A DNA stretch of 64,000 bases from an uncultured Rhodospirillales bacterium (GCA_965368335.1 CBDUMN010000003.1:1586-65585); one strand, 5' to 3'. Counted from the stretch's first letter, positions 12,201-52,280 are shown. Program-made: numbers and translations. Notes: generated by a model not told the origin, from the letters alone.

Positions 12201-12213
12201 GGAGAAACAAGTC

Positions 12214-17024: not shown

Positions 17025-17059
17025 AAAAGGGCGAAACAAATGAGGAGAAGCCTCGCATT

Positions 17060-18616: not shown

Positions 18617-18626
18617 GAGGGGCTGA

Positions 18627-20233: not shown

Positions 20234-20234
20234 C

Positions 20235-22693: not shown

Positions 22694-22697
22694 GACA

Positions 22698-26704: not shown

Positions 26705-26862
26705 ATATGAGAATCATTCACAAAACAATCGCTTTTTAAGCTTTTCTTGAGGGTTTTTGTGCCCATATAGAAGGCTGCGGTTTTTATCGGCACAAGCACA
26801 GCGCCGACAAGGAATAGGGCCTGGACAGAATATCCCGGCCATACGTGACCAGGAGTAACAGA

Positions 26863-30040: not shown

Positions 30041-30087
30041 TCATGCTGGTTGCCCGGCAAGACACTTTATTAAGTAAGGAGAGCTCT

Positions 30088-32472: not shown

Positions 32473-33692
32473 TTTTCCGCCTTCCTTTTATCTGCAATAT
32501 CTTCAATAGCCTTCAAAATCGCCGCCTTTGCATCGCCCGGTCGAATAAAATAGTTTAATGGCTTGCCCCATCGATTCGCCTTGAAAACCCCCGTGTCCCG
32601 ATAGGTGGAGATCACCTCTTCCAATTCATCAAGCTCATCGACAACCCGCAATAAAGGGGATTTGATTTTTGGAAAACGATCAAAAAGCTTCGGCATCCGA
32701 TAAGTTACCACCGGCTTGCCATTGGCTAGAGCATTGAGAAACGTTGATGATGTCAACGTCACCACCATATCGACATTCTGATAGGTCTCATCAGTGATCA
32801 ACCGGGAGGAATCCAGGCGCATATATGCGCCAAAGTGATATTCCACATGGTTCCGTATTTCTTCGCTCTCTGACGGATGAAACTTATAGATGGGCGTGAA
32901 AGACGCCAAAGTCAGGATGAATGGCGGGTAGTGCTTTTGCCAATCCTGCATCCTCATTTTTCTTTGCCTGACAAAATTTTGGTCGGGATAAAAAACACTA
33001 AAGATTTCAGGATTTTCTCTTCTCTTAATTTTTGACGAAAACACCCGCTTATCAATCAGCAAAGAGCCGACGATATGGATGTTCTTCTTCGGCACACCGT
33101 AGAGCAAACGCATGGTTTCCTCCGCCGACTTGCCAAAGAGAAAAACGTAGTCGGGATGTGTTTTGCCAAAAGGCTGGGAGCGGTGAATTTGGTTTGCGAC
33201 AAAAAACTTCAAAGAATCGGGAAAATAGCCGAATAGAAGACAAAACCGACGGACAAGAGGATACCACCAGGGGGAAAACTCGGGCTGCGGCTCAAATCCA
33301 TGGAAACCATCCTGAACGGTCATGGTCTTCAGCCCTAACTCTCGCGCTATTCGTCCTAACGGAGCTGCTTTGAGGGTGCCATCATTAAAAGTCAGGAATA
33401 AATCACCATCCGCCATCAGCAAACGGGCTTTTTCACAAGCTAGGTCGATGCAGGCATCCAGATAGCTTTTTCGTATTCCTTTCGCTTTGAGAGCGGCGAC
33501 TGTTTCATCCAGCTTTTCATCCAACTCGACAAAAGTTACGCCAATCTCCCTCGCTTTATCGATCACCCCGCCAACATCGATCTTGGGGGTGATAAAAAGG
33601 ACAAGCTCATACCCTTTGGCCTGAAACTCAGGAAGCAAAACGCCCAGGTGGGCAACCTGGTTACTTGCCTCGCAGTATGAATATATCTTCAT
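32469..33692 (-). CDS. hypothetical protein, possibly a GT-B-fold glycosyl- or glycerophospho-transferase-like enzyme
   Basis: 407-aa ORF coupled by ATGA to galE. Only weak resemblance was seen by eye (two Rossmann-like halves; KFHPSESEE; LTSSTFLNALANGKPVV). No firm motif. Confidence 0.3.
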   Translation of the reverse strand: MKIYSYCEASNQVAHLGVLLPEFQAKGYELVLFITPKIDVGGVIDKAREIGVTFVELDEKLDETVAALKAKGIRKSYLDACIDLACEKARLLMADGDLFLTFNDGTLKAAPLGRIARELGLKTMTVQDGFHGFEPQPEFSPWWYPLVRRFCLLFGYFPDSLKFFVANQIHRSQPFGKTHPDYVFLFGKSAEETMRLLYGVPKKNIHIVGSLLIDKRVFSSKIKRRENPEIFSVFYPDQNFVRQRKMRMQDWQKHYPPFILTLASFTPIYKFHPSESEEIRNHVEYHFGAYMRLDSSRLITDETYQNVDMVVTLTSSTFLNALANGKPVVTYRMPKLFDRFPKIKSPLLRVVDELDELEEVISTYRDTGVFKANRWGKPLNYFIRPGDAKAAILKAIEDIADKRKAEK

Positions 33693-33710: not shown

Positions 33711-34367
33711 CTATGGTTTGACTAAGTAGGAAATGGCATTGGAATAGGGGAGCTTCTCGACAATGATTTTCGTTTTTTCGAGAAATTCCTCAATCGCCTT
33801 GTTTGCTCCAGGAAAAGCGCCATAGTCATCCAAAATAACGATGCCCCCCCGAACCACATGATCAAATAAATTTTCCAGGCAAGCCTTGGTCGGCTCATAC
33901 AGATCCACATCAATATGCAGGAGAGAAATGCGAAGGGCTGGATTCTCCTCTAAAAAAGCCGGAAGCGTTTCGCGCAAATCTCCCGCAATAAGGTCAATGT
34001 TCGTATTGAGCCCCACCTTATCCAAACAGTTGCGCATATCTTCAATTGAGATACTCAGATCCCCCGCCTCAGAAACAAACCGTTGGCGCACCTCAACATC
34101 GGCCTCAAATTCAGCATCGGGAAATTTCCCAAAAGTATCAAACCCAATGATACGGCGACTTTTCGGATTCTCAAAAAGAGCTCGGAATTTAACCAGGCGA
34201 GAAAACGACGCCCCTTTAAAAACGCCACACTCAACGACTTCGCCCGGCAAATGACTGATCCGACGGTAAAGGTCCATATGGGTAGCAAACTTGCTAAAGC
34301 GTTCGACCGGGGCGGTTAAATAATATCCATTCTCGTAATCAAACTGTTTTTCAAAATCATAATCCAT
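33711..34367 (-). CDS. TylF/MycF-family (macrocin-type) sugar O-methyltransferase
   Basis: GEVVECGVFKGASFSRL SAM-binding motif and GGIVILDDYGAFPGANKAIEEF. The 218-aa size is typical. Confidence 0.75.
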   Translation of the reverse strand: MDYDFEKQFDYENGYYLTAPVERFSKFATHMDLYRRISHLPGEVVECGVFKGASFSRLVKFRALFENPKSRRIIGFDTFGKFPDAEFEADVEVRQRFVSEAGDLSISIEDMRNCLDKVGLNTNIDLIAGDLRETLPAFLEENPALRISLLHIDVDLYEPTKACLENLFDHVVRGGIVILDDYGAFPGANKAIEEFLEKTKIIVEKLPYSNAISYLVKP

Positions 34368-34421: not shown

Positions 34422-35639
34422 TCATGAAGATTTACTTTGATATTTCTCCATGACTGATCGATAGAGCGATGGCGTCAAACTAAGGGGGCGTTTCCCATCT
34501 AACTCCGCCTGAGCAATGTAAACAGCTAGTGAGGCTTCATGGCGCGCATAATACTCTTCATTGTCAGCCTGAACCAACCCGCCATGAGATCTTCCAATTG
34601 TGTCGTGCTCGGCCGCTCTATGCGAAGCCCACATGGCGCTTGCCCCCTTTTCACGGCCATCTAAACCGGCTAGCAGCAACATCCGCCCCAGACTACAGGC
34701 GACAGGGAATGCCACCGATGTTGTGACATTCCAAGCATCGACACAAACAAACTCTCGGGTGAGGTCTAGGTTAACGCGGGCGGGAGGGAACCCCTCAAAC
34801 CGAGTCGGCACCCCAACCATTTTTTGATGTAAATTTTTTGGCGTATCTTGAAGGAAGTACCGCAGGTACTGAATTTGCGTCACAAAAAGGCGATTTTCAC
34901 GACTTAAGAAATCAGCCAAAACTCTTCGATAATTGCCGCCGTATCGGGAAACTCCGCAGAAGTAAGGATCACCGATCACCGCAACAACCGGCCCCACATG
35001 GTTCAAAATATGCTCTTGTCCAATCAGCGTATTGGGCACCACCAAGGTGGTGTTGTGAAATTTACTTAAATCGATTGTTTCGCAGCTATGCCCTGGAGCG
35101 AGAAGTAAGCTGGCCTCAATCCCCTGTTCTTGAAGCTTTTTAATGAAATGGGAAAAATAAACACGCGACACCCCCTCTTCACGCTTTGCCGGAAAGACCT
35201 TGGCAAAAGTTTCGGGCAATTCCGCAGCCTCAAATACATTGGCTTCGGTATCAATAATGACTTTATGGACTTCCTTGCGCTTCACTGCGAGTTCCAACGC
35301 AGGATAACGTTTTAGGACCAATTCGGCGGCACTGTGATCAACACAAATGATCACTGCCGCTTCCTCTAACCGACCATCTTGATCGGCGACAAAATCAAAG
35401 ATTTCCCAATTGGCGTTCAGGGTATCTATGCAACAGGGATGGAAAGGTTCGGGACAATTCGCCAGAACCTTTTCTTTCAATCTCGGGGCCTCCAAGAGAC
35501 TTTGCGTTACCGGCACGGAAACTTTAAGCCCGGCGCCTGAAAACGGCGCGCAATACCAGGCCAAGCGGTGAAGCACTTCGGCCAATTTCTCTAAACTATC
35601 TAGCGCGGGAAGCACGGAAAGACGGATGGCTTTGCTCAT
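34422..35639 (-). CDS. hypothetical protein (405 aa) inside the nonulosonate operon
   Basis: Long ORF in an operon with short intergenic gaps. No recognisable catalytic motif by eye. The stretch LLLAPGHSCETIDLSKFHNTTLVVPN vaguely recalls the GxGPS region of MptE/Maf-like proteins. Confidence 0.5.
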   Translation of the reverse strand: MSKAIRLSVLPALDSLEKLAEVLHRLAWYCAPFSGAGLKVSVPVTQSLLEAPRLKEKVLANCPEPFHPCCIDTLNANWEIFDFVADQDGRLEEAAVIICVDHSAAELVLKRYPALELAVKRKEVHKVIIDTEANVFEAAELPETFAKVFPAKREEGVSRVYFSHFIKKLQEQGIEASLLLAPGHSCETIDLSKFHNTTLVVPNTLIGQEHILNHVGPVVAVIGDPYFCGVSRYGGNYRRVLADFLSRENRLFVTQIQYLRYFLQDTPKNLHQKMVGVPTRFEGFPPARVNLDLTREFVCVDAWNVTTSVAFPVACSLGRMLLLAGLDGREKGASAMWASHRAAEHDTIGRSHGGLVQADNEEYYARHEASLAVYIAQAELDGKRPLSLTPSLYRSVMEKYQSKSS

Positions 35640-35661: not shown

Positions 35662-37905
35662 TTAGAACCACTTTTCGAGCCGATTAAGCGCTATGGCGAA
35701 CCCTTCGCCACCGTTTTTATGTCCCTGCCAAATTTCGGGAATAAACGAAGCCGAGGAACAACACTTCTTCACCTGCTTTGCCAAGTGCTCAAAATCAATA
35801 TCTCCATCCCCGATCTGTAGTCCTTCATCATCGACCCCGCGAGCATCGACAAGATGCAAATGTTTTGAGTAAGGCCCTACGGTTTCAATAAATGAAGCAA
35901 ACGACCAGCCAAACTTTGTACAGGCCAATTTAGAATGAGAGGTATCCAAACAAATATTCGTTTCATATGTTTTGCAGAACCACTCGATTTCATCTGGGTC
36001 CATGAATAAGTTGTGGTAACGCTGCCCCCCCATTAACCAAGGAAACGGTGGCATGGTCTGAGGTAAAAGCTCGACCCCTTCGCTATCAACTCGCAAAAAC
36101 CCTTCTGCGACGCGCTCGTACATCTTGCGCCTGTCTGATTCAGGGATAAAACTCTTCTCTGAAAAGCCCCCAACATTGACAATAATGAACGGACGGTCGG
36201 CACGTTTAAAATAGGGCTTCAACGTCCGGGCCACATCGACAACATTTTGCAATTCACGAATGCCTCGCTCCCAAATTGCATTGTCGTCAGAGGCTAGATC
36301 GAGCAAATAATCACGAGCGAAAACCTCCGGGGAATGAACTACTAAATCCATATCCAGAGGCCCGTCCATATAACTTTCGACGGATATATCCATATCCTTG
36401 AAGCTCAGATGGAACTCCAACAAATCTGGTGCGATTTTCTCGAGAAACTGTTTGTAGTCATGGCATCGGACAGGCACGCCCCATGGATGCCTGAACTTAT
36501 AATCATGAAAAACGTTTTGTTCGCCAATGACATCTGCTTCAAAAAAGAAATCTCCAGCCTTGATATCCCGCGTCGCCAAGCTGCCGACCAACTCACTTCG
36601 CCGGTTGGGCTGGATACCGCGCCCCGGGTTCTTGATATCAATAATATCATCGGTGATGACATCACCCTTCGAAACATCACGAGTAGCAACGAGGCTTTTG
36701 GCGAGGATTTCGCGGTTCATCATTTCGCCCTGGCTTAAAACGCGGACAGGCTCACCAATGGAATCTTCAGTCTGCCGAATGGCCTCAACCATCTCCCGAA
36801 ACTCATCAGGCAATAAACTAATTCGATGGTCGTTGCCTTCTAGGGACCGGTCGACCGTAAAATGCTTCTCAACAATTTTTGCCCCTAGCGCAACCGCCGA
36901 AACAGCCACATGAATACCGCGTTCGTGTCCTGAATATCCCACCGGGCATTCACCGATTTCTTTCAAACGTTTTAGGTATGAAAGGTTGATGTCCTTGAAT
37001 GGTGGCGGGTATGCGGAATTGCAATGAAGCAAGGCAAACTGAGCCCCCTGCCTTTGCAGAAGTTTCACGGCATCCTTGATTTCCTGCTCATTCGACATGC
37101 CGGTCGAGACGATCATTGGTTTTTTAGTAGCGGCGACCGCCGCCAAGAGCTCATGGTTTGTCAGATCTGCGGATGCAATTTTATATGCTTGAACCCCCAT
37201 GCCCTCTAAAGCTTGCAAACTTTCCAAATCCCAGGGCGTACAAAGCGGGATAGCCCCACAACGACGGACATAATTCAGCGCCTCAGCCATTTCCTCGTTG
37301 GAAAGCTGGAACCGTGACAACAGGTCAAGCACATATTGCGACCCCAAATCTTCACTTGGGTCATTCGCAGCATCGGCATTGCGATAGAGGCTATCCATAT
37401 GGCGGAGCTGAAATTTAACGCAATCAGCTCCCGCATCGACGGCAAGGTCGATCAGTTCCTTCGCACGTTTCAAGCTGCCATTATGGTTGTTGCCGATTTC
37501 AGCAATAATAAATGCCTTGGAATCATCGGAAATCTCACGCCCTTCAATATTCATGAAGGATGCTTCATCAAAAGCAATCGCGACGAAATGCCCCATTTCA
37601 TTGACCAGGGGGACAAAGTGGATTTTGCTATCTAGTAGATTTCTAATGACCTCGGGGTCCTCATCAACCCCAGCCACAGTGATTTCCTTGGTCATTAAAT
37701 CTGCGACAGAGCGGTTGATATCAACCTGGTCTTCATTCACCACCCAACGCCTAAAATCGCCGTCGGTAAAAACCCCTTCGATGGTCCCTCTCTCCGTTAC
37801 GGCGCAAACAAAACCCTTCTTGTTCTGGCTCATCTTGATGAGAGCTTCCAAAACCGTTGCATGAGCAAGCAACACGAAAGATTCGACATTTGATTGGATA
37901 ATCAT
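35662..37905 (-). CDS. four-module fusion: CBS pair, NeuB-type nonulosonate synthase, SAF domain and xylose-isomerase-like TIM barrel
   Basis: Residues 1-~115 are CBS-like (GFVCAVTERGTIEGVFTDGDFRRWV). From ~130 comes the NeuB signature AFIIAEIGNNHNGSLKRAKELIDLAVDAGADCVKFQ. The SAF domain is LVATRDVSKGDVITDDIIDIKNPGRGI. The last ~280 aa are sugar-phosphate isomerase/epimerase (AP-endonuclease-2 TIM)-like (HLHLVDARGVDDEGLQIGDGDIDFEHLA). Confidence 0.85.
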   Translation of the reverse strand: MIIQSNVESFVLLAHATVLEALIKMSQNKKGFVCAVTERGTIEGVFTDGDFRRWVVNEDQVDINRSVADLMTKEITVAGVDEDPEVIRNLLDSKIHFVPLVNEMGHFVAIAFDEASFMNIEGREISDDSKAFIIAEIGNNHNGSLKRAKELIDLAVDAGADCVKFQLRHMDSLYRNADAANDPSEDLGSQYVLDLLSRFQLSNEEMAEALNYVRRCGAIPLCTPWDLESLQALEGMGVQAYKIASADLTNHELLAAVAATKKPMIVSTGMSNEQEIKDAVKLLQRQGAQFALLHCNSAYPPPFKDINLSYLKRLKEIGECPVGYSGHERGIHVAVSAVALGAKIVEKHFTVDRSLEGNDHRISLLPDEFREMVEAIRQTEDSIGEPVRVLSQGEMMNREILAKSLVATRDVSKGDVITDDIIDIKNPGRGIQPNRRSELVGSLATRDIKAGDFFFEADVIGEQNVFHDYKFRHPWGVPVRCHDYKQFLEKIAPDLLEFHLSFKDMDISVESYMDGPLDMDLVVHSPEVFARDYLLDLASDDNAIWERGIRELQNVVDVARTLKPYFKRADRPFIIVNVGGFSEKSFIPESDRRKMYERVAEGFLRVDSEGVELLPQTMPPFPWLMGGQRYHNLFMDPDEIEWFCKTYETNICLDTSHSKLACTKFGWSFASFIETVGPYSKHLHLVDARGVDDEGLQIGDGDIDFEHLAKQVKKCCSSASFIPEIWQGHKNGGEGFAIALNRLEKWF

Positions 37906-37946: not shown

Positions 37947-38675
37947 TCATGATCCGCCCAAATTGGCGTTTTTCTGCCAATCAGGCTTACTGCCGAGGAT
38001 CATTTCGGCCATGGCAAAATCTTCTGGCTCGTCGATATCGATTGATTCCAACTTGTCCAACTCGAACAGGACAATCTTACCACCAAGACGACAACCTGTT
38101 TTTCTCAACAGTTCCGTTTTGAAAATGAAGATCGAGCCATTCTCCTGAAATAATTTGAGCGCCTCAGGTAAATTCTGGCGCATTGGACGATCTAAATAGT
38201 CAAACTCAGCCTGTGCGTCATCAGGGCTCCGCCAAAGGAATGGCGGATCCAATGGGGAAACCGAGACCAACGAATCCGCGCCCGTTTTCTCAAAGCGGCT
38301 TAGCGCTTGAACCAGCCGCTCCGGATGGCGGCAGGGAGATGTTGGCTGCAGCAAAACAACGACATCAGGTAGATACCCCTCGTTCGACTCGTACCAGTCA
38401 AGAGCATGTAAGAGGGCGAGCTCTGTCGGAGCATTATCGGTCGCCAACTCAGTTGGGCGAAGAAATGGCGCCTCGGCCCCCATAGCCAAAGCAATGGACT
38501 GAATATCAGGGCTATCCGTCGTCACCACGACCCTGCCGGGCAAATGACTATTGAGAGCAATCCCTATAGACCAAGCAATCAGAGGCTTCCCCAGAAGCAA
38601 CTTGGTATTTTTACCGGGTATGCCCTTTGAGCCTCCTCGCGCAGGAATAATACAGATGCATTCAGTCACAGCCAC
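37947..38675 (-). CDS. acylneuraminate cytidylyltransferase family (CMP-nonulosonate synthetase, NeuA/LegF-like)
   Basis: CIIPARGGSKGIPGKNTKLLLGKPLIAWSI and LLQPTSPCR motifs. Confidence 0.9.
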   Translation of the reverse strand: MAVTECICIIPARGGSKGIPGKNTKLLLGKPLIAWSIGIALNSHLPGRVVVTTDSPDIQSIALAMGAEAPFLRPTELATDNAPTELALLHALDWYESNEGYLPDVVVLLQPTSPCRHPERLVQALSRFEKTGADSLVSVSPLDPPFLWRSPDDAQAEFDYLDRPMRQNLPEALKLFQENGSIFIFKTELLRKTGCRLGGKIVLFELDKLESIDIDEPEDFAMAEMILGSKPDWQKNANLGGS

Positions 38676-40129: not shown

Positions 40130-41368
40130 TTAGGCTGGTTGTAAGGACGTTTTTTCTTCTTCTGTTTGAAGGATATGGCTAGCAAAGCTGGTGAAAACGT
40201 AATCTAGTTGGGCATCGAGCATGAGATGCCGATAGACAGGCTCGAAAATATCATCGGCCAAAATAACGAAATTTGGTTTTCTTTCGCGGAGGCAGCGGTC
40301 AATCTCACTCCGACTGAACCCGCCGTCACTCCCACGTTCACGGATAATCGCCATTCCCTCGACAGAGACGTCGTTTCTCTTCAATAGGCGCATAATAGGG
40401 TGGGCCCATTCAGGACTCGAAATAACCAGAGCCCGATCCTTTTCGGTCTTGCCGTTGCGTAAAAAATTTAGATCATTCTCCACGGCTTTCTCAATCTGGT
40501 TTTTCCGGTCCACCTCAAGGTTTGCCAAAATTTGCTTCCGATCCGCCTCACAAGCCTCCTTATACTCGGGCGCAAAACCGCCAATTTCTTCCCGAGTGAA
40601 CAGGAATTTAGCTCTAAGAGTTTGTTTGTTTACATTTATGGAGTGGGCATGGATGAACCCATGGTAGGCCATAATCTCACGCCAACCATCCAGCTGCAGC
40701 CATATTGAATGATCGGCGCCCATGCCTGAGCGCGGATGCCGATATTTCTTATTATCATCGATTTCTTCGATTTTAGCTGGCTCGCGATACCAAAAGGTTT
40801 TTAGATTATGACCGTTGAATGTCACATCCTGTCTCGGCACAACAACGCTGGCGAAATTCGATGAGGCAAGCTCATCTTCGGTGTCAGGAGCAAAGTGGGA
40901 ATCTATATAGATCGCCGTAGAGGTATTCCGTCCAAGCGCATCAAGAAAACCAATCGGGTCTGTAAGGTGATAGAGAATTCCAGCGGCAAAGGCGCCGTCC
41001 GCTTTTGGGATTGCACTAAAATCGAGAATATTTGCGGTCTGAATACTGACCCGATCCATCCCCAGAATTTCAGCAAGAAAGCGGCCTCTACGGGCCGAAT
41101 GATCCCGCCCTTCAAGTCCAATGACTCTATCGCCATCACGTCCCAAATTAAGGCACGTCACACCCTCATTGCAGCCCAGATCCATAAAGGTTATAGCGGC
41201 ATCCGGCCCCATCAATTTTCGAGTGTAGAAACGCAAAATGGTTTCCCGCCGATTGCTATTGAAGTCTTTCTCCAATGCCATATCGGGATAGATTGACCCA
41301 TCCGGCAATTGGATCGCCTCAACTGAGTTTGAGGGACCAAGCCTGTATTTTTCGTCATATTCTACCAA
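40130..41368 (-). CDS. class I SAM-dependent methyltransferase with an uncharacterised C-terminal domain
   Basis: Motif I is FMDLGCNEGVTCLNLG, followed by GILYHLTDPIGFL. A ~180-aa C-terminal extension has unknown function. Confidence 0.65.
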   Translation of the reverse strand: MVEYDEKYRLGPSNSVEAIQLPDGSIYPDMALEKDFNSNRRETILRFYTRKLMGPDAAITFMDLGCNEGVTCLNLGRDGDRVIGLEGRDHSARRGRFLAEILGMDRVSIQTANILDFSAIPKADGAFAAGILYHLTDPIGFLDALGRNTSTAIYIDSHFAPDTEDELASSNFASVVVPRQDVTFNGHNLKTFWYREPAKIEEIDDNKKYRHPRSGMGADHSIWLQLDGWREIMAYHGFIHAHSINVNKQTLRAKFLFTREEIGGFAPEYKEACEADRKQILANLEVDRKNQIEKAVENDLNFLRNGKTEKDRALVISSPEWAHPIMRLLKRNDVSVEGMAIIRERGSDGGFSRSEIDRCLRERKPNFVILADDIFEPVYRHLMLDAQLDYVFTSFASHILQTEEEKTSLQPA

Positions 41369-41438
41369 GACGCCCTACCTCTATAAGCTGGAAAGGAAAA
41401 ACTATTGTAATATCAGGGCATCATCTAGCCTAAATGAT

Positions 41439-42956
41439 TTAGGCGGTTTCTTGATATTTTTCAGCATACTCTTCCTTAAGCTCACCCCAGATTCTGTCCC
41501 CTTCCGGGGTCAGGGCTTCCGCCCGCTCGATATCTTTCCAGCGCTCTTCCGGAAACTTTAGGTAGAGGTTGAAAGTTCGGGCCTTGCCGTGAATTTGCTC
41601 TCGTGTGAACTGAGGCATTTCAAGGATCGAGTCGTCTAAGTTGGGCGGAGCGAGAACATTCGGATCTTTCAGGAAACCGTGCATGATCGAAAGCTTACGC
41701 AGCGGTGTGCCAAAGAAGGGGGTGAAAATCGAGCAACTTGAGGTATGCGCCCCGAGCGCTCTATTCAGGCGCACCGTATCCATATGCAGTTCCGGCGTCT
41801 CTAGCGGAAAGCCAACGATATTGTTGCAGCCGTATTGGACGCCATATTTCTTGAGCATCTGAACGTTATCGATAGCCTTTTGATTGGAATATTTGCGGTT
41901 AATCACCTCGGCACGGAACTGTTCATTGCCGTGCTCCACTCCCATACCCAATCGGTCCAGCCCGACCGAAACCAGCTTCTGAAGCTTATATTCGTTTAGG
42001 GTTGTCGGATAAGACTGGGCAAAGAAGGGGGTGCGGAATTCAGCGTATGCCTCGCAAAACTCATCAATCTCGGCCTTCGAATAAGCAAGGAAATTGTCCG
42101 CCCAGAAAAACAGGTATTCCGCTTTCATCTCCTTAACAAAATACTCCACATCCTCCATGACGCGGGGAATGGATTTTTTACGGAAATAGCGCGCGCCAGT
42201 TTCAGCCTTATAGGTCTCATCCTGCAATGGCGAATTACAGAAGGTGCATTTCAAAGGACAACCGCGATGGGTCTCCACCGGAAACATCCGATAAACCTTG
42301 CCCGCCATGGCTCGATAAAAGCGAGTATCGTCGAAAACAGAGGCATCGAACCGCGGCAGATCATCCATTTCGACGGCGGCCTGGAGCTTACCCCGAATAA
42401 TGTTGCCATCTTTGTCCTTAACCCACATACCCGACAAATCGGATATATCTCTCCCCTGAACCAACCGCTCAACCAAGGGAACGATAACCGGCTCCCCCTC
42501 ACCGACGCATATAGCGTCAACCTCTGGGAAGTTAATGGCGACCTCCGGCGCATAAGTTGGGAACACTCCCCCCAAAATGTGGGGTTTGCCCAAATCACGA
42601 ACGGCGGCTAGAAGATCGCGTGTTAGCTGGGCGGTGCTCTCCAAAGCTGAAGCCAAGATCACGTCTGGGTTATAATCTCGAACCTCCTTGCGGAAAGCCT
42701 CATAGACGTTTCCGTAGGTGGCGAAAGTGATGCCGCGTCTCTTGAGTTCCTTCTCATAAGGCGAGACGATAAGATTTTCCTGCATTTTCCGGTCAAAATT
42801 CGAGAAGTCTTCCGACATATCAAAAAATGTCGTATCGAAAAACCGCATCTCGACGCCATGTTGCTTGAAAATCGAGCTGAACAACGCAACCACTGGCTGG
42901 ACCAGAGACATTTGGCGCGGATTGGGATTGATGAACATCACTTTGATATTGGCCAT
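41439..42956 (-). CDS. B12-binding-domain radical SAM enzyme (class B, methyltransferase-type)
   Basis: ATG 42956 with GAGGAG RBS. The N-terminal Rossmann-like cobalamin-binding region is IKVMFINPNP...DVILASAL. The radical SAM motif is HRGCPLKCTFCNS. Confidence 0.85.
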   Translation of the reverse strand: MANIKVMFINPNPRQMSLVQPVVALFSSIFKQHGVEMRFFDTTFFDMSEDFSNFDRKMQENLIVSPYEKELKRRGITFATYGNVYEAFRKEVRDYNPDVILASALESTAQLTRDLLAAVRDLGKPHILGGVFPTYAPEVAINFPEVDAICVGEGEPVIVPLVERLVQGRDISDLSGMWVKDKDGNIIRGKLQAAVEMDDLPRFDASVFDDTRFYRAMAGKVYRMFPVETHRGCPLKCTFCNSPLQDETYKAETGARYFRKKSIPRVMEDVEYFVKEMKAEYLFFWADNFLAYSKAEIDEFCEAYAEFRTPFFAQSYPTTLNEYKLQKLVSVGLDRLGMGVEHGNEQFRAEVINRKYSNQKAIDNVQMLKKYGVQYGCNNIVGFPLETPELHMDTVRLNRALGAHTSSCSIFTPFFGTPLRKLSIMHGFLKDPNVLAPPNLDDSILEMPQFTREQIHGKARTFNLYLKFPEERWKDIERAEALTPEGDRIWGELKEEYAEKYQETA

Positions 42957-43181
42957 AGGATTCTCCTCATTAGCCAGTTTCAAGGCTATCGACCGACCGT
43001 CAGTCATCCTTCTGGATATGAACCAGCCTTGAATCTTATGTTCCGGTATATGGTAAACCTAAAAATAGATATCAAGGCGGCGACAACGGAGTTGGCCGAT
43101 AGCTAGCGCCTGGCGGCCACCGCCGATCCAGACAAGCACAGAGTAGCTTAGCGACTCATTCTTGAGAGAATCTTAAAAGGC

Positions 43182-44072
43182 CTACTTACCGTTTTTTAGC
43201 CCATCGATCATGTAGACTAAAATATACCTTTCATGCCCCTGTTCCTGATACCACCCCCGGTGGGCTCCGGCCTGATCGGAGAGTATTAAGGCACCCTTTT
43301 TGGCCAACGCATGAACCCTTCTTGCACGGTTAAAAAACTCATAGAAGGCATAGATACAGCCCGTACGATCGCCAATTTTCTTATTGATGGCACGCAGCTT
43401 TTCTTCCTTGTGAGTCCCTAGAGCATAGGAGTAGGGGCCATCGTCGACGGTCTCCACGTCGGTTAGGTAGACGAAGGCTTTTAACCCTCCATAGGCCCGG
43501 TCGTAATGCCACCCGGCGCAATCGCCCATCGAGCGACGCAAATAAAGATTGGGATTATCAAAACACCACTCCCGATCATCATAACCACTAATGATCGCCG
43601 GAATGAAAGAGCCGGGGCCATGCTCTTCTACAATTTCCTTACTTTCTTCGGACAACAACCGATGGACATTAAAAATATCGATAAATCCAACATCAGGCAC
43701 AGCCCGTACGTTAATGCCGGCAACACCTTCCTTGTCCCGCATTTCGGCATACCCCGGCGCAATGTTTTTTGGCGAGATAAACACACGTTCATCGGAAAAT
43801 TCTTTATCGCCGTTAATGGGCTCGTCGTACTCCGCAAGCGCCGTATCGACTTCCTCCCTGAGTTTGGCGACCTTATCCTCTGTCATAAAATTTTCTACGA
43901 CGACAAAGCCATGGTCCAAAAAAGCCTGTTTGATGCCCATGAAGAACCCATTTTCAGCACGCCTCTCCCAATCGTAAACATAAGGCGTATCCTTTAACGG
44001 CTCACAACCCGCCATCTCCTCAAAGGCGATATCCATCACTTCAAAAAGATCGTCGGTTGAAAGGGTTCTCAT
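43182..44072 (-). CDS. Fe(II)/2-oxoglutarate-dependent oxygenase, phytanoyl-CoA dioxygenase (PhyH)-like
   Basis: FLDHGFVVVENF start pattern, HxD in GWHYDRA, and a distal His in GAHRGW. ATGA overlap with the upstream methyltransferase gene. Confidence 0.5.
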   Translation of the reverse strand: MRTLSTDDLFEVMDIAFEEMAGCEPLKDTPYVYDWERRAENGFFMGIKQAFLDHGFVVVENFMTEDKVAKLREEVDTALAEYDEPINGDKEFSDERVFISPKNIAPGYAEMRDKEGVAGINVRAVPDVGFIDIFNVHRLLSEESKEIVEEHGPGSFIPAIISGYDDREWCFDNPNLYLRRSMGDCAGWHYDRAYGGLKAFVYLTDVETVDDGPYSYALGTHKEEKLRAINKKIGDRTGCIYAFYEFFNRARRVHALAKKGALILSDQAGAHRGWYQEQGHERYILVYMIDGLKNGK

Positions 44073-45841
44073 TCCTCTTTCCCTCTTGCTTGATTATTTT
44101 TAACAAGGATTTGGTCACGCCGTTGTTTGAATTTCTCAATATCACCGCCCGTCGGCTTTGGAATCTCGGGAACCGTACCGGGGACCGGAGCCGTTTGCCG
44201 CTTTTTCGAAACCAAAAGGCTGGTAATTCCAACCCCCCCAATACTTTCGCCAGGGATGTTTTTTTGCTGGATAAAATTATGGCGGCGGAAGCCATGGGTA
44301 GTTGCCGCCTCTTCAATAAGCCAGGAAACGAAACCGTCTTCGCCCCCTTTAATCAAAACAATCGAAGCTTCTTCAATGGGGCCTTCCATTAGGTTACGCA
44401 CGATGGCTTCATCCGTGCCTCCCTCACCAAAAACCAGAACACTTGGCTGCTCGACAAGTCGAACTCCAGCCAAGTCCTGCTCCAGACACTCGATTTCAGA
44501 TCTACTTAAGAAATTGGAGAAGTGGCTCCAATAGCCATTTTTACTGGATTTTTTAAGGCCATACTCACCAGCCGGGGCAAGAAAAAGCCTGACCTTCTTG
44601 AGCAAATCCGGCCGCTCCGAAAGATACATCAGCAGCCAAGTGGCAATTTCGGGATTGGAGAGCACCGAATAGCAAAAACCGACATGCTGCGCCCACCAGA
44701 GAGTTTCTCTCCCATCCCCGTAAACCAATAAAGTATCGGTTGGCAAGAGATGCCGCCCTAACCAGTCAAGGGCGGGTAGCGCATGTTCCGGCACATCAAA
44801 GGCAACCCGATGGCGCTCTGAAGCAGAGAACCGATCAACAAGTGATTCCACCGGCTGGTTCAACTCACCCGGCTTGAATTTGCTCTTACCGCCAGTGGCG
44901 GCGTCTTTTTCTATTTTCTCAGCTTCATTGAGCCTCGCGTGAAGTTCAAAAACTTGGCGGCTCAACTTCTCAATCAATGGCTCGGCCATTTCCGGCAGGA
45001 ACGACATTGGCTCAACCAAAGGCACTCCCGGTTTGCGCTGGAAAAGCGAACGGATGTAAACCCCTTTACCAGTCGGGTCGTCAATGGCGGCAAAATCAAG
45101 CGCCACCCCTTTGCCTATCACGTCAGTAGCCGGGTTGCCATCCACCCGCAGCGCTTTCTCTTCCAGCCAATCGAAGTTACCGCAAAGGCTCGAAAGGGTT
45201 TTCGGTGAAAAGAAATTGATATGGCCGTGTCCATAGCGTCGTCCGCCAGGCTTCCGCCCAACCATTTCAACGACCTCTTCCTCATTAGGCACCTCGATAT
45301 AGAGATGCCCCCCCTCTTTAAGCAAAGGAGAAAGACGGGCAATCCAATATGAAGGAGGATAAACATGCTCTAACACATGCGATAACGTTACGAGATCGAA
45401 CGCACCATCCAGATCGCCCGAAAACAGGGTCTCACTTTCCAAACGACTGACACCGTTGATCCCATCAATCATCTTTTGGAGCTTCTTGTCCTCTTCGACA
45501 GCCGTGACTTCAGCCCCCACTTCTTTCAAAAAGAGAGAGAGAGTTCCATATCCGGCGCCGAAATCGAGCACCTTCAAGCCCGTGAGAGGGGCTCCATTCT
45601 TTTGAATGAAATCAGCCTGCTGCCTAGCCCGAAGGAGCATAAACTGCAGGCGTTGCGCCGTTCCTAGCTCATTTTGGGAAGAGCGATAATCGTCACTATA
45701 ATACCGGTTCAGAACAGCCCCGGAGACAAAAGATATTTGGATGAACCCACAATTATTACACTTGAGAAGGTCTGCACCAAAATCAGGATGTGGCCAAAGT
45801 GTCTGATGATTTGTTTCTCCACAAACTTCACATTGGCTCAT
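44069..45841 (-). CDS. zinc-ribbon / class I SAM methyltransferase with a large uncharacterised C-terminal half
   Basis: N-terminal CEVCG...CNNCGF Cys4 ribbon. Motif I is VLDFGAGYGTLSLFL, followed by LVTLSHVLEHV. The ~300-aa C-terminal region has unknown function. Confidence 0.7.
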   Translation of the reverse strand: MSQCEVCGETNHQTLWPHPDFGADLLKCNNCGFIQISFVSGAVLNRYYSDDYRSSQNELGTAQRLQFMLLRARQQADFIQKNGAPLTGLKVLDFGAGYGTLSLFLKEVGAEVTAVEEDKKLQKMIDGINGVSRLESETLFSGDLDGAFDLVTLSHVLEHVYPPSYWIARLSPLLKEGGHLYIEVPNEEEVVEMVGRKPGGRRYGHGHINFFSPKTLSSLCGNFDWLEEKALRVDGNPATDVIGKGVALDFAAIDDPTGKGVYIRSLFQRKPGVPLVEPMSFLPEMAEPLIEKLSRQVFELHARLNEAEKIEKDAATGGKSKFKPGELNQPVESLVDRFSASERHRVAFDVPEHALPALDWLGRHLLPTDTLLVYGDGRETLWWAQHVGFCYSVLSNPEIATWLLMYLSERPDLLKKVRLFLAPAGEYGLKKSSKNGYWSHFSNFLSRSEIECLEQDLAGVRLVEQPSVLVFGEGGTDEAIVRNLMEGPIEEASIVLIKGGEDGFVSWLIEEAATTHGFRRHNFIQQKNIPGESIGGVGITSLLVSKKRQTAPVPGTVPEIPKPTGGDIEKFKQRRDQILVKNNQARGKEE

Positions 45842-46013: not shown

Positions 46014-46694
46014 TTATAGATGACGCTGCTTCGCAGGGTTTCCATAAACAACGGCGCCCGACGGCACATCCTCAACCACCACAGCGCCACACCCAACGAC
46101 GGCACGGTCACCAAGCGCCAAACCCTGGCGGATAATTGCCCCAGCACCGACAAAGGCTAAACGGCCGACCGTTACACCACCAAGCAAGCAGGCCCGCGGC
46201 GCAATGTGCACATGGTCCCCAACCCGGCAATCATGTTCAACGACAGCCGCCGTATTGACGATGACGTTATCGCCGAGACAACTGTTGGCATTGATGACCG
46301 CACGCGGAAGCACCACCGTCCCCTCGCCTAACTTTGCAGATGGCGAAACGACCGCGGAATCATGAATGACCGTCAGAGGCGAAAGCCCCGCAGAGATCGC
46401 TTGGGCAAAAAGCTTTTCACGTTGTTGATTATCAATTCCGCCCCCGAGCCCCAACACAAACCAATGAAATCCATTGGCCACAGCGTCGCTTAGCACCTCG
46501 TCACCGCCAATGACAGGCAACCCATGGGCGGCGCCTTGAGCCTGGAGTTTTTTCTTTGAATCGAGAATGGCGGCTGTGCTCAGAAATTCCTTATGGGCAG
46601 AGCTTTGAAAAGCGTCCAGCACCACGCCTGCATGCCCACCACCACCAATGATGACCAGCCGCCCCTTGGAGACCTTGCCGCCGATATCGCCCAT
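46014..46694 (-). CDS. NeuD/PglD-family hexapeptide-repeat sugar N/O-acetyltransferase
   Basis: N-terminal Rossmann-like LVIIGGGGHAGVVLDAF. The C-terminal left-handed beta-helix repeats are VVSPSAKLGEGTVVLPRAVINANSCLGDNVIVNTAAVVEHDCRVGDHVHI. Confidence 0.85.
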   Translation of the reverse strand: MGDIGGKVSKGRLVIIGGGGHAGVVLDAFQSSAHKEFLSTAAILDSKKKLQAQGAAHGLPVIGGDEVLSDAVANGFHWFVLGLGGGIDNQQREKLFAQAISAGLSPLTVIHDSAVVSPSAKLGEGTVVLPRAVINANSCLGDNVIVNTAAVVEHDCRVGDHVHIAPRACLLGGVTVGRLAFVGAGAIIRQGLALGDRAVVGCGAVVVEDVPSGAVVYGNPAKQRHL

Positions 46695-46756: not shown

Positions 46757-47101
46757 CTAGCTTCCTTCGAGGAAACCTTCGGAAATTTGGAGATTGATAT
46801 TGATGAGGGTGTCCAAGGACTCGGAGGGTAATTCGACACCATGTTTCATAACGGTTTCTGCAACGAATTGGCTCAAACGAACCAAGTTCCCTGTTGTTTC
46901 TTCGGAAAGCCCATTGTCTGCCCGTTGCGCCAAAAGCCGAATGGCAATCCAGGTTTCCATGTTCTTTTCAAGCGCCGCCGCGAGCAGTCCTTGATCTTCC
47001 CGGGCATTATCCATCAGAACCGCGGCTTCAGATAACTGGTAAGCACTTTCTTTCGGTGCGTTTTCTTCCATTCCCGCGAAGGCCATTGATTCGTCTGCCA
47101 T
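46757..47101 (-). CDS. divergent FlaF-family protein (second copy)
   Basis: Aligns by eye with the FlaF at 59498-59938. LLAAALEKNMETWIAIRLL matches VLAAVRINWQLWTILQ, and LDTLININLQISEGF matches LDVLININRELAAGL. ATG 47101 is preferred (GGAAGGGG RBS). Confidence 0.55.
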   Translation of the reverse strand: MADESMAFAGMEENAPKESAYQLSEAAVLMDNAREDQGLLAAALEKNMETWIAIRLLAQRADNGLSEETTGNLVRLSQFVAETVMKHGVELPSESLDTLININLQISEGFLEGS

Positions 47102-47180
47102 ACTGACACCCCTTCCTATTAATGCCGTGTCCGGCCCACCTGTTTCACTGGCCGTCACGATACGCCGCACGATGCGGGAT

Positions 47181-49085: not shown

Positions 49086-50276
49086 ATGATCTCTCTTGAC
49101 CCTCTCCATCAAGCTTTGCGCAACAATCCTTCCGACCAATCCAATTGGATAAAACTTGGATTGGCCTTACTGCAGCTTGGTTGGCGTCAAGAGCTATTCA
49201 AACTCTGTCAAGTCCGCCAGGACCAATTCGGCGACGGTCCCCTTCTGTTGTTTACGATGCTCAACCATGCATCGACCCCTCAACTGAAACGCCGGATAGT
49301 CCAAATGGCCAATGATTCTCCGGCAGGGACACCGCTCACCATTATTTTTGATTTTTTCGCCGGTTGCCTCACACTGCTTGAAGGTAATCCTCGCAGTGGA
49401 TTTAGCTTTTTAGATAAAGCCGCCAGGAGTGCGGTCAATTTTGGAAGCCTGTTTCGGGATCACGAAAAGCTATCGAACATTATCATCCAACATTTTTTGA
49501 TCAGGCCGCCTGCTGATGTAGCCGAAACGGACCTTTCGTGGCCCCATACCGAACTCCCCCCTCTTGAGTGGGGAACGTCGGCACAGCAGCATCAAAAAAT
49601 CGAAAAAAATCTGGTCATCATGGCCTGCTGCAACGATACCTACCATCGTCGCTTTGGCGAGGAATTCATCAAAACTCTTTCGCCTTATGGCCACATCCAT
49701 ATCCACGTCGCCAACGCATCTGTAGAGATGCGGGAAGAATTGGAAAAGGATGCGGAAAATAAAGCCTTAAGCTACTCTTATGAAGACTCCGGTTCCCATG
49801 GAATCGGCCATTACTACGCCGTCATGCGGTTCCTCAACGCACGGGCGATTATGGAGTTCTTTAACCAGGATCTCCTTATTTTAGATATCGACTGCGAGAA
49901 AGTGTCGAACTTACCTGAACTCATCGAGGCCTCACAAAAGCACGATGTGAGCTATTTCAGAACCGGCAACTACATGCCCTGGCTCGACCACCACGCAGCT
50001 TATATGTATCTAGCGCAAACGGCCGGAGGACAAGCCTACGCTTCGCGCCTAAGGTCCTATATTGCCTCGAAACTAAACAAAGCCTGTTGGATGCTCGACC
50101 AATCATCCATGTGCTCTCTTTATAATTTTTATCTAAGCACCGATTTTCATGACGGGAAAACACCGGTCGATCTGCATACTTTCAAGCAGTCTGACGGATA
50201 CGATTTCTGGTCCTATTTTCAGCCAAGCGGAACTGCTGAAGAAAAATGGGAATATCGCCTACAAAAAAACGATTGA
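49086..50276 (+). CDS. hypothetical protein, possible GT-A-like nucleotide-sugar transferase
   Basis: 396 aa. The only hints are a central LVIMACCNDTY...LLILDIDCE (DxD-like) arrangement. The N-terminal ~60 aa look TPR-like. Confidence 0.3.
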   Translation: MISLDPLHQALRNNPSDQSNWIKLGLALLQLGWRQELFKLCQVRQDQFGDGPLLLFTMLNHASTPQLKRRIVQMANDSPAGTPLTIIFDFFAGCLTLLEGNPRSGFSFLDKAARSAVNFGSLFRDHEKLSNIIIQHFLIRPPADVAETDLSWPHTELPPLEWGTSAQQHQKIEKNLVIMACCNDTYHRRFGEEFIKTLSPYGHIHIHVANASVEMREELEKDAENKALSYSYEDSGSHGIGHYYAVMRFLNARAIMEFFNQDLLILDIDCEKVSNLPELIEASQKHDVSYFRTGNYMPWLDHHAAYMYLAQTAGGQAYASRLRSYIASKLNKACWMLDQSSMCSLYNFYLSTDFHDGKTPVDLHTFKQSDGYDFWSYFQPSGTAEEKWEYRLQKND

Positions 50277-50357: not shown

Positions 50358-52280
50358 TCATGAGCCCCCCTTGCCAATTGGGCCAGGTCTCAGCCCCTCT
50401 CCATAATGTTTCCACATGGTTAAATACAGGGTTTCGAGGTTCCTGACCTTTGCAGTTGTATCGAACAAGGGGTGGGTTTTTCTGTTTTCAACAACACGAT
50501 ATTTTAGTTTCCGCAGCCGACCGATATCTTCAACGATTTCCAGAACAAGATTTTCATACGCCTCAAGATCAGACGCGATAAGTTCTTCCAAACCATGCGA
50601 ACAAAGAAGGCTCTCGGAAACTCTGGAAGCAAAATGGCTCCCAGCAATGGCGACGACCGGGATACCGGCCCATAAGGCGTCCGTTGTCGTGGTGTGCCCC
50701 GTATAGATCCGCGTATCGAGTGCCAAATCGGCCAAAGCAATACGCGCCAGATGCTCAGGCTTTGAAAGCTTATCGGCGAAAATCAAGCGATTGTCTTCTA
50801 TCCCTGCGGCCCGCGCCTGGGCCTTTAAGTTTTTTTCAGCTTCTCGGTTATGGCCGAACAGCCAAAGTACGCTTCCTTGAATTTGATGGAGCAAAGACAT
50901 CCAGACGGAAAACATCTGCCTGTCGATTTTATATGTCTGACAGAAGCAGCAAAATACCAATGCATTTTCCGGCAAACCCTGTGAAGCTCGACTTAGCAAT
51001 TGAGGGCCCACAGCCTGTTCATTATCGGTTGGCCAGTAGGTCCCCTCAAGATAAGCGGGGGCTTCCGTGAAGAATGGGACATCGCTGGCCGGGCAAACGA
51101 TGTCATCAACAAGTACGTAGTCGAGGAAATCCCCCCCACAGGTACCGGGATAGCTAAGATACCCTACCTGCAACGGGGCTGGCCGTAATGCACAAATTTC
51201 GAGTCGCGAGCCGTCCGTATGCCCCGTCAAGGCGATGAGGATATCAATACCGTCTCGATTGATCCGTTCCGCCGCTTCTCCATCGTTCAAACCAGCAACA
51301 TCGACAAAGCGGTCGCACGATGCGGTTATCGCTTGGCGGTGAGGACTTCCGTCATCGGGACCGAAAGAATAGGCAAACACCTCAAAAACATCCCGGTTAT
51401 GCTTGCCATAAAGGCCTGCCGTATTATGGGCGGTGGGGTGATCGTAAAAATTTCCACTCAAATAGCCGATCCGAAGTTTCCCTCCATGGAAGCCACTCTG
51501 GTTAAAGGAAACCCGCTGGCGAATGGGCGCCAATTTATCGACCATCTCCGTCGACCAAGCTTTGGCGACTTCCAAATTTCGCTCTGGATGTGCACTCCTG
51601 GCGATACTCATAAACGGCGTTTCTCCAGGGCGTTCGCCATCGGCCAGGGCCTTAACAGTTTGCTCTTCCATACGCGCCTCAACCTGTTCCATCTCCTCCC
51701 AGGAGCAGGTTTTCTGCAGAATATGGAAAAGTTGCGCAACGGCATCACGATCATCAGGCACACAGGAGACAACCTGATTCAGCATTTGCTTTGCTTCCCC
51801 AAAACGCCCGAGAAGCTCCAGGGCGCAGCCCCGATTGTAAAGGGCGGCGCAATTATCAGGAGCAAACTCAAGGGCTTTGTCAAACCGGCCAAGCGCCTTT
51901 TCTAGTTCCCCCATTTTGAGATAAACGCCACCCAGATTAAGATTTAATACAGGGTTCTCGGGGGCAAGACTCAAGGCCTCTTTAATAACGGACTCGGCAC
52001 ACGTAAGATCGCCACGGGCAATCAGGGTCAAACCGAGATTAACCGACGCTTCACTGAATGATGGATTAATCTCGAGCGCCCTACGATAATGTGCTTCTGC
52101 TTCGGCATACCTCCCCAAATCTGACAAGGCATTACCTAGATTGCTAGGCACAGCTGCCGATTGCGGCGCAAGCTCCATAATACGCTTTAACAGATGTATG
52201 GCCGCCTCCGCCTCCCCTGCGGCCCTAAGCGCGCTGGCCTTCTCAAAAAGAACCGCAAGATTGTCTTTCGGCATGTCCAT
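50358..52280 (-). CDS. TPR-repeat / GT41 (O-GlcNAc-transferase, SPINDLY-like) glycosyltransferase
   Basis: Roughly five to six TPR units in the N-terminal ~200 aa. The C-terminal GT41 hallmarks are LRIGYLSGNFYDHPTAHN, DGIDILIALTGHTDGSRLEICALRPAPLQVGYLSYPGTCGGDFLDYVLVD, and ALVFCCFCQTYKI. Confidence 0.8.
   Translation of the reverse strand: MDMPKDNLAVLFEKASALRAAGEAEAAIHLLKRIMELAPQSAAVPSNLGNALSDLGRYAEAEAHYRRALEINPSFSEASVNLGLTLIARGDLTCAESVIKEALSLAPENPVLNLNLGGVYLKMGELEKALGRFDKALEFAPDNCAALYNRGCALELLGRFGEAKQMLNQVVSCVPDDRDAVAQLFHILQKTCSWEEMEQVEARMEEQTVKALADGERPGETPFMSIARSAHPERNLEVAKAWSTEMVDKLAPIRQRVSFNQSGFHGGKLRIGYLSGNFYDHPTAHNTAGLYGKHNRDVFEVFAYSFGPDDGSPHRQAITASCDRFVDVAGLNDGEAAERINRDGIDILIALTGHTDGSRLEICALRPAPLQVGYLSYPGTCGGDFLDYVLVDDIVCPASDVPFFTEAPAYLEGTYWPTDNEQAVGPQLLSRASQGLPENALVFCCFCQTYKIDRQMFSVWMSLLHQIQGSVLWLFGHNREAEKNLKAQARAAGIEDNRLIFADKLSKPEHLARIALADLALDTRIYTGHTTTTDALWAGIPVVAIAGSHFASRVSESLLCSHGLEELIASDLEAYENLVLEIVEDIGRLRKLKYRVVENRKTHPLFDTTAKVRNLETLYLTMWKHYGEGLRPGPIGKGGS

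Follow-up and report, generated by a model that had tools for sequence, protein, structure and literature searches.

The subject of this analysis is a block of four genes in a 64,000-nucleotide stretch of DNA from an uncultured Rhodospirillales bacterium (GCA_965368335.1 CBDUMN010000003.1:1586-65585; hereafter the window). Four consecutive minus-strand open reading frames (ORFs) fill positions 40130-45841 and were labeled A to D in map order. A (40130-41368, 412 aa) encodes an EvdMO1-like class I methyltransferase, B (ORF 41439-43007, 522 aa; probable gene 41439-42956, 505 aa) a B12-binding radical S-adenosylmethionine (SAM) enzyme, C (43182-44072, 296 aa) a PhyH-superfamily Fe(II)/2-oxoglutarate oxygenase, and D (44069-45841, 590 aa) a Cys4 zinc ribbon joined to a class I SAM methyltransferase and an orphan C-terminal half. 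The same four genes are called in the source metagenome (JGI 3300010430) on the 102-kb contig Ga0118733_100001077. An earlier sequence-only reading had described four minus-strand genes here, and their coordinates, all of the motifs and domains quoted for them, and the domain assignments of all four hold. It had further described the 590-aa protein as coupled to the dioxygenase; the ATGA overlap is present in the sequence at the D/C junction, and by this overlap C is translationally coupled to D. No paralogues of A, C or D occur inside the window. As judged from sequence comparison, the genes differ greatly in evolutionary status: B belongs to a widespread family tied to cytidine monophosphate (CMP)-sugar clusters, A and C are rare, and D is a unique fusion.

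Domain Composition of the Four Proteins

The segment HRGCPLKCTFCNS (B residues 247-259, window 42231-42269) carries the CxxxCxxC motif, and its cysteines C250, C254 and C257 are invariant across 22 family members. Pfam matches B to Radical_SAM (PF04055, 76.7 bits, above the cut-off; core at ~41772-42275 on the minus strand) and to B12-binding (PF02310, 35.8 bits versus a cut-off of 32.1; ~42486-42701, same strand), which bears out both the N-terminal cobalamin-type domain and the radical SAM motif proposed earlier. Translation probably starts at Met18 (42956), giving 505 aa and correcting the earlier 522-aa ORF, since a GAGGAG ribosome-binding site lies upstream, the same protein is recorded as 505 aa, and homologues are ~500 aa long.

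By its sequence B has the architecture of a class B radical SAM enzyme, and this part of the earlier description as a class B methylase stands; the methylase part is less secure, given that no curated subfamily cut-off is reached and non-methylases score alike, and we favor it only by a little. In an NCBIfam scan B attained the cut-off of none of the characterized class B subfamilies compared (HpnJ, BchE, QCMT, TokK/ThnK, PhpK, HpnR, KedN5 and TsrM) nor of any other curated family, the best partial score being 84 bits for HpnJ, where 578 are needed. MJ_1487 (77 bits), BchE (76), the methyl-coenzyme M reductase (MCR) glutamine C-methyltransferase (75) and C-methyltransferases of ribosomally synthesized and posttranslationally modified peptides (RiPPs; 74) follow, and because all of these scores fall far below the family cut-offs they do not discriminate between the activities. 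The closest solved structure is 9CCB (E 4e-10), which is QCMT, the MCR glutamine C-methyltransferase (2026 review, PMC12931638); TokK, CysS and OxsB are weaker matches (E ~1e-3).

In A, the DLGCNEG motif occupies residues 63-69. The Pfam methyltransferase match scores 25.7 bits, just under the cut-off of 27, so the assignment is carried only by the family profile and the structure model. The family is rare: an exhaustive HMMER search of 1.84 billion representatives returned 12 matches below 1e-30, 11 of them distinct from the query and most of them 384-442 aa long and ~30% identical, and a metagenome scan with the A family yielded no locus beyond those already found. Against solved structures, the family profile matches the EvdMO1 methyltransferase domain (5T38, 6EC3) with E 6e-22, the next structure reaching 4e-8. 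An AlphaFold model from the family alignment (predicted local distance difference test score, pLDDT, 87; predicted template modeling score, pTM, 0.86) comprises the methyltransferase domain (aa 1-260, ~40589-41368), a helical hairpin (aa 267-305), and a small four-stranded Rossmann-like C-domain (aa 313-408, ~40145-40432), the C-terminal half having no Pfam match. A Foldseek search of the PDB with this model placed first 5T39, the EvdMO1 N-domain with S-adenosylhomocysteine (SAH) and D-fucose (E 2.6e-15, target template modeling (TM) score 0.73), while TcaB9, MtmC and KijD1 align over the full length but with TM scores of only 0.33. Sequence and predicted fold thus both indicate that A is a specific relative of the EvdMO1 sugar methyltransferase domain. 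The substrate of EvdMO1 itself is not settled.

The WHYD and AHRG motifs of C lie at residues 188-191 and 270-273, and H189, D191, H271 and R282 are invariant in six family sequences, only five homologues of C having been found. An HxD...H iron triad together with a 2-oxoglutarate-binding arginine is the expected signature of an Fe(II)/2-oxoglutarate oxygenase. With Pfam PhyH (PF05721, cut-off 22) C scores 21.0, the homologue P0129 25.9, and P0135, a fusion protein described below, 33.9; as the match of C itself is just below the cut-off, its assignment to PhyH comes only from the family profile. All matches of this profile in the PDB are PhyH-fold oxygenases, led by 4XC9, 4XCA, 4ZPI and 4XCB, which we take to be orthosomycin-pathway oxygenases (E 1e-5, a local 40-residue match over the iron-binding strand), with PrhA, DhiD, SnoK, TlxI, PHYHD1, EasH, AusE and SptF ranked lower.

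D begins with the Cys4 zinc ribbon (aa 1-35, ~45737-45841, minus strand), whose four cysteines (C4, C7, C28 and C31) do not vary across alignment A5 of the Zn-ribbon methyltransferase family. The class I SAM methyltransferase domain follows (aa 72-224, ~45170-45628), matched by Methyltransf_23 with 75 bits and containing DFGAGYG at residues 93-99. The N-terminal 220 residues of D are homologous to a ~315-aa zinc-ribbon methyltransferase that accompanies the B family. Among solved structures, the family profile of this half matches best 3CC8, a generic methyltransferase (2e-22), and matches 4RV9, TcaB9 and KijD1 with E 1e-12 to 3e-10 from the second CxxC through the methyltransferase domain. 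Since Pfam reports neither Methyltransf_13 nor Methyltransf_14, the latter being the sugar-nucleotide C-domain, for D or its 315-aa relatives, D resembles the TcaB9/TylC3 type without being a member.

The sequence-only reading was right that about 300 residues of this Cys4-ribbon protein are left unassigned: the C-terminal half (aa ~280-590, ~44072-45004, minus strand) has no homologue and draws no match from Pfam at E values up to 1, and full-length D has no homologue but itself among 5.8 billion proteins. The ORF was recovered in several independent assemblies and is therefore not an assembly artifact. Profile comparison of the C-terminal half gave a probability of 0.7% against the A family and 0.1% against the 415/457-aa protein of loci L085 and L089 (see below). 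Structure prediction, which had been recommended for both unassigned C-terminal domains, was informative for A, where a Rossmann-like fold is predicted confidently, and failed for D, whose AlphaFold model from a three-sequence alignment has a mean pLDDT of 49 and stays below 50 across most of residues 321-569.

Distribution and Gene Neighborhoods

More than 1270 homologues of B were found at E up to 1e-10; the best 120 of these are ~500 aa long and 45-72% identical and come from many phyla, the named ones including an archaeon. Twenty-two diverse members have a mean column identity of 59%. A scan of one genome per GTDB species gave 241 relatives, from which 80 loci were taken for neighborhood analysis, ORF clusters being counted over 81 loci with 10-kb flanks; in 40 loci the 10-kb flanks are complete. 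Hosts include Nitrospina, Scalindua, Planctomycetota, Omnitrophota, magnetotactic Nitrospirota and Magnetococcales, Rhodospirillales and Terasakiella, as well as the non-flagellated Pelagibacteraceae (SAR11), Patescibacteria (candidate phyla radiation, CPR), Methanoperedens, Methanosarcinales and Methanoregula. No member of the family is characterized in the literature searched.

Where the flanks are complete, 37 of 40 loci hold a CTP_transf_3 cytidylyltransferase, 25 of 40 hold NeuB, and 38 of 40 have at least one of the two. Over the 81 loci, the cytidylyltransferase is likewise the commonest neighbor within 10 kb (59 loci), followed by an NAD-epimerase (42), NeuB (31), a radical SAM-SPASM protein that also has a counterpart in the window (27), a 635-aa GT-B-like protein (25), the ~315-aa zinc-ribbon methyltransferase (23), an SDR (18), a Gfo/Idh/MocA oxidoreductase, a class I/II aminotransferase and a HAD phosphatase (17 each), and a 2-hydroxyacid dehydrogenase (16). 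In 10 loci the zinc-ribbon methyltransferase is separated from the B homologue by no more than 300 bp, mostly on its upstream side. A Maf protein or flagellin within 10 kb was found in 0 of 80 loci, which together with the non-flagellated hosts suggests that the substrate of B is a sugar-pathway molecule and not flagellin. The association with cytidylyltransferase and NeuB loci implies that the family is part of CMP-ulosonic-acid and surface-glycan pathways generally, the flagellar island being one particular use.

In Candidatus Nealsonbacteria (L002/L007, 10001-12118), a B-family domain is fused to an SIS sugar-isomerase in a 705-aa protein (P0065) encoded directly after NeuB. A second, paralogous B12-radical SAM gene follows this fusion, and tandem pairs of such genes also occur in L003, L004, L008, L062 and L078. 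In L003, the locus of the closest B homologue, two upstream genes (628 aa and 313 aa) were considered as counterparts of D and C and proved unrelated to them.

SAR11 is usually described as a lineage without a B12 requirement. Five SAR11 loci have an AdoCbl-II riboswitch (75-101 bits) beside the B homologue (L031, 14124-14204, minus strand; L042, 12576-12656; L059, 11654-11735; L065, 11660-11740; L082, 7277-7366). The riboswitch is followed by genes for a TonB-dependent receptor (646 aa) and a DUF6580 protein, and the arrangement lies directly downstream of the B homologue in L042, L059 and L065. This neighborhood constitutes indirect support, independent of the B12-binding domain, for cobalamin use by the B family. 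The SAR11 unit resembles a B12 uptake unit set beside a B12 enzyme. In the window itself no Rfam family reaches threshold, and hence there is no cobalamin riboswitch; a promoter and terminator scan gave counts at or below chance.

Homologues of A and C were found in none of the 80 B-family loci. They are linked to each other, and to a radical SAM enzyme, elsewhere. The 766-aa protein P0135 joins a PhyH domain (33.9 bits) to an A-like methyltransferase, complete with its C-domain, in a single natural polypeptide; in the window, C lies two genes upstream of A. At L085/L086 a DegT aminotransferase gene is followed by a B12-binding radical SAM gene and then, overlapping the latter by 4 nt, by the gene for this fusion. 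Past a 457-aa gene on the opposite strand, 1.4 kb downstream of the fusion, lies a gene for a 2431-aa tetratricopeptide repeat (TPR)-glycosyltransferase (L085, 5957-13252). With GT1-like and GT2 domains alongside long arrays of TPRs, this protein recalls the three TPR-glycosyltransferases of the window. L089/L090 encodes the A-like methyltransferase P0140, a B12-radical SAM enzyme, and a 331-aa PhyH-like protein that hhalign matches to the C family across the HxD...H core (78% probability, E 1.8e-5). The neighbors of this trio are NTP-transferase, GHMP kinase, RmlD-like, E1_dh, epimerase, DegT and GT2 genes. The two sugar clusters that carry the trio are unrelated. The C homologue P0128 is located at a contig edge, where its context is uninformative. 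Most further A-family contexts lie on short contigs or amid mobile-element genes, and three of them are too short to judge.

A conserved 415-457-aa protein also stands beside the trio (L085, 4577-5950, minus strand; L089, 6778-8025, plus strand; 26% identity, E 5e-33). It has no Pfam family and no counterpart in the window, and a relationship to the GT1 adjacent to the block was ruled out (1% probability).

The Flagellin Glycosylation Island

The block is part of a glycosylation island of ~47 kb that lies between flagellar structural genes and flagellin, the block itself standing between flgK and flagellin. Flagellin, Maf, a nonulosonic acid synthase and a CMP-synthetase are clustered with flagellar genes, as expected of a Maf-type island, and flagellin glycosylation islands with pseudaminic or legionaminic acid (Pse/Leg) genes and methyltransferases are well known. 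The flagellin-glycan setting assumed in the sequence-only reading therefore holds, with flagellin, two Maf proteins, FlaF, a NeuB fusion, a CMP-sugar synthetase and flgE/flgI/flgK around the block.

Upstream of D on the minus strand are genes for a PglD-like N-acetyltransferase (46014-46694; PglD_N and Hexapep), which is the next gene, and for the flagellar regulator FlaF (46757-47170; PF07309, 38.6 bits), two genes from the block. Two Maf flagellin glycosyltransferases (53564-57515, minus strand; Maf_flag10_N and MptE-like; 39% identical to each other) and flagellin, the presumed acceptor (60394-61311, minus strand; Flagellin_N and Flagellin_C), lie beyond. Downstream, a convergent GT1 gene separates the block from a CMP-ulosonic-acid-type cytidylyltransferase (37947-38675, minus strand; CTP_transf_3, 74.8 bits). 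Next to it, a 747-aa NeuB synthase fusion (35662-37905, minus strand) combines CBS, NeuB, SAF and xylose-isomerase-like TIM domains, scoring 282 bits for NeuB and 334 bits against TIGR03569, below the cut-off of that family. The same fusion is present in an Alphaproteobacteria metagenome-assembled genome (L005; 51% identity over 745 aa), and a free-standing TIM-barrel protein like that of the fusion occurs in 8 B-family loci. The predicted TylF-type O-methyltransferase (33711-34367, minus strand) was likewise recovered (PF05711, 90.6 bits), and an epimerase gene lies near it, also downstream of the block.

The flagellar structural genes flgE, flgI and flgK are found at 6.4-12.2 kb, and between the hook-associated genes and the island is a histidine kinase with PAS and C-terminal hemerythrin domains (13730-15826, minus strand). 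A radical SAM domain fused to FeS_assembly_P (26845-28230, plus strand), the radical SAM-SPASM protein (30043-31467, plus strand; Pfam), with its relatives in 27 of the 81 B-family loci, and the three TPR-glycosyltransferases (28259-30040, 50358-52280 and 57556-59490) also belong to the island. The island holds GT41-TPR and GT61-TPR genes, and its sugar genes further include three for DegT aminotransferases and one for an RmlD-like reductase.

A second sugar pathway is encoded at 16832-23624 on the plus strand, with an HldE-like kinase/nucleotidyltransferase, a GmhA-like SIS protein, an epimerase, an APH-like kinase and a split transketolase (21842-23624). A thiamine pyrophosphate (TPP) enzyme adding a two-carbon branch to a keto-sugar has been proposed for yersiniose and eurekanate (PMC10338323), and by analogy the split transketolase could add such a branch here. 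Sizeable ORFs without a Pfam family are located, within the island or next to it, at 32469-33692 and 34422-35639 (minus strand) and at 49086-50276, 52479-53552, 12088-13752 and 20235-20852 (plus strand). Of these six, the four scanned with NCBIfam gave no usable match, the 407-aa one matching "surface carbohydrate biosynthesis protein" faintly.

Proposed Function and Alternative Explanations

Based on sequence and gene context, we propose that the block is probably a sugar-tailoring cassette for the flagellin glycan. The proposal starts from what the sequences show directly, namely which domains and catalytic residues the proteins have, where the genes lie and which associations among them are conserved; from this we infer the substrate, the regiochemistry, the sequence of reactions and the transfer of a methyl group by B. 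Sugar substrates are favored by the comparative data, namely the CMP-sugar neighbors of the B family, the EvdMO1 likeness of A, and the occurrence of the trio in sugar clusters. The heavily methylated or hydroxylated sugar of the sequence-only reading stays a prediction. The substrate would be a nonulosonic acid, or its nucleotide-sugar precursor, produced by the NeuB and CMP-synthetase of the island and moved onto flagellin by Maf. B would perform cobalamin-dependent radical chemistry at an unactivated carbon, either in the sugar itself or in one of its acyl or methyl groups, most probably methyl transfer from methylcobalamin, and the N-terminal half of D would supply the zinc-ribbon SAM methyltransferase habitual to the B family. 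C would hydroxylate or oxidatively cyclize a sugar carbon using Fe(II) and 2-oxoglutarate, and A would O-methylate a sugar hydroxyl in the manner of the EvdMO1 methyltransferase domain, its Rossmann-like C-domain possibly holding the nucleotide.

Several observations weigh against this proposal. The island has genes for several sugar pathways (heptose-like, RmlD-like, and that of the split transketolase), and A and C may act on another island sugar than B and D, given that their relatives are found in clusters of the nucleoside diphosphate (NDP)-hexose type and not of the nonulosonic acid type. The radical SAM enzymes of L085/L086 and L089/L090 are only 23-26% identical to B (and 34% to each other), so that the trio recurs as enzyme classes and not as orthologues; moreover, three other A-family contexts, L088 among them, are without both partners. 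HpnJ (ring contraction) and BchE (a cyclase) score as high on B as methylases do, and the C-terminal half of D matches nothing with which it was compared.

The first of these points leads to the alternative that survives best, although it clearly stays behind our proposal in probability and is compatible with it: two pathways, in which B and D tailor the CMP-nonulosonic acid, and A and C another NDP-hexose or NDP-heptose moved by the TPR-glycosyltransferases. It would account for the 0 of 80 B-family loci with A or C homologues, for the DegT, NTP_transferase, GHMP kinase, RmlD-like and E1_dh genes beside the relatives of A and C, and for the HldE-like, GmhA-like, RmlD, split transketolase, GT41-TPR and GT61-TPR genes of the island. 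Against it, the gene order D-C-B-A interleaves the two pairs, D and C are translationally coupled, and the relatives of A and C elsewhere are also accompanied by a class B radical SAM enzyme.

It is rather unlikely, though worth weighing, that B is not a methylase and brings about some other cobalamin/radical SAM change of the sugar, such as ring contraction or rearrangement of the carbon skeleton (compare HpnJ and OxsB) or oxidative cyclization (compare BchE), with the class I methyltransferases then supplying all methyl groups. HpnJ, itself an enzyme acting on a sugar moiety, gives the best NCBIfam partial score of B, with BchE level with the methylases. The radical SAM partners of the A and C relatives also score best on HpnJ and BchE, and OxsB is among the solved relatives of B. 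Methyl transfer is nevertheless favored by the closest solved structure, that of the C-methyltransferase QCMT, and by the fact that the majority of characterized class B enzymes are methylases (PMC12931638).

That the cassette serves another surface glycan (lipopolysaccharide (LPS), capsule or S-layer) and lies among flagellar genes by accident is improbable: relatives of B do turn up in clusters for surface polysaccharides at large, alongside ABC transporters, GT2, GT4 and capsule-type genes, but here the block stands between flgK and flagellin, with FlaF upstream on the same strand and two Maf genes near. Lysine methylation of flagellin exists in Salmonella and Shewanella, and QCMT, closest to B among solved structures, puts its methyl group on a protein side chain, with RiPP C-methyltransferases scoring alike, yet direct methylation or hydroxylation of flagellin lysine, glutamine or arginine side chains is the least probable explanation of all, because the B family is tied to CMP-sugar genes in hosts that lack flagella, with flagellin or Maf in 0 of 80 loci, A matches a sugar methyltransferase crystallized with D-fucose, and the closest solved relatives of C are small-molecule oxygenases.

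Returning to the sugar-tailoring cassette, the literature searched reports no class B or B12-radical SAM enzyme in flagellin glycosylation islands or in nonulosonic acid biosynthesis, and the words sugar, sialic, nonulosonic and flagell- do not occur in the 2026 review of B12-radical SAM enzymes (PMC12931638). The occurrence of the B family in CMP-sugar clusters from SAR11 to methanogens points to an undescribed C-H functionalization in nonulosonic acid biosynthesis, a step that, if real, would link the structure of surface glycans to the supply of vitamin B12. A bolder idea, to which we give little credence at present, is that the trio of class B radical SAM enzyme, PhyH oxygenase and EvdMO1-like methyltransferase is a conserved module for a sugar decoration unseen on bacterial surface glycans. 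CysS extends methoxy groups on cystobactamids; by analogy, one possible course would be hydroxylation and then O-methylation, after which radical chemistry lengthens the methoxy group to ethoxy or isopropoxy. The decoration might also be a bridge of the methylenedioxy or orthoester kind known from orthosomycins.

If the module idea were true, the B family would be a widespread cobalamin-requiring step diversifying nonulosonic acids across Bacteria and Archaea, and the reason why SAR11 cells import B12. Flagellin glycans influence motility, filament stability, and immune or phage recognition, and owe most of their chemical diversity to nonulosonic acids. To enzymologists, the recurrent trio offers a defined, testable module. 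We regard the finding as a well-supported annotation lead to new sugar C-H chemistry, not as a demonstration of such chemistry.

Relation to Known Systems

The island shares the set of flagellin, Maf, NeuB, CMP-synthetase, aminotransferase, acetyltransferase and methyltransferase genes with the Maf islands of Campylobacter, Helicobacter, Aeromonas and Magnetospirillum, which have Pse/Leg genes and ptm-type tailoring, but is much larger (~47 kb) and in addition carries three radical SAM enzymes, the PhyH oxygenase and the TPR-glycosyltransferases. With the class B radical SAM enzymes QCMT (9CCB), TokK, CysS, OxsB, HpnJ and BchE, B has in common a B12-binding Rossmann N-domain and a CxxxCxxC radical SAM core; it differs from them in forming a ~500-aa family of its own, below every curated subfamily cut-off and tied to CMP-sugar clusters. 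The N-terminal half of D shows the same order of Cys4 ribbon and class I methyltransferase as the NDP-sugar 3-C-methyltransferases TcaB9, KijD1 and 4RV9 (D-mycarose 3-C-methyltransferase), whereas the orphan 300-aa extension is peculiar to D and generic methyltransferases outscore these enzymes.

The HxD...H...R signature of C is that of the orthosomycin-type PhyH-fold oxygenases (4XC9, 4XCA, 4ZPI, 4XCB) and of PrhA, SnoK and PHYHD1, although the match to the orthosomycin-type enzymes is only local and C lies 1 bit under the PhyH cut-off. The same antibiotic pathways provide the nearest solved relative of A. EvdMO1, a methyltransferase fused to an oxygenase in everninomicin (orthosomycin) biosynthesis (5T38, 5T39, 6EC3), is related to A by sequence and predicted fold and likewise has a PhyH-fold oxygenase partner, which here is a separate gene. 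In contrast to EvdMO1, A adds a helical hairpin and a Rossmann-like C-domain and is only ~20% identical, the oxygenase precedes the methyltransferase in the fusion P0135, which is the reverse of the order in EvdMO1, and the setting of A is a flagellin glycan, where that of EvdMO1 is an antibiotic oligosaccharide.

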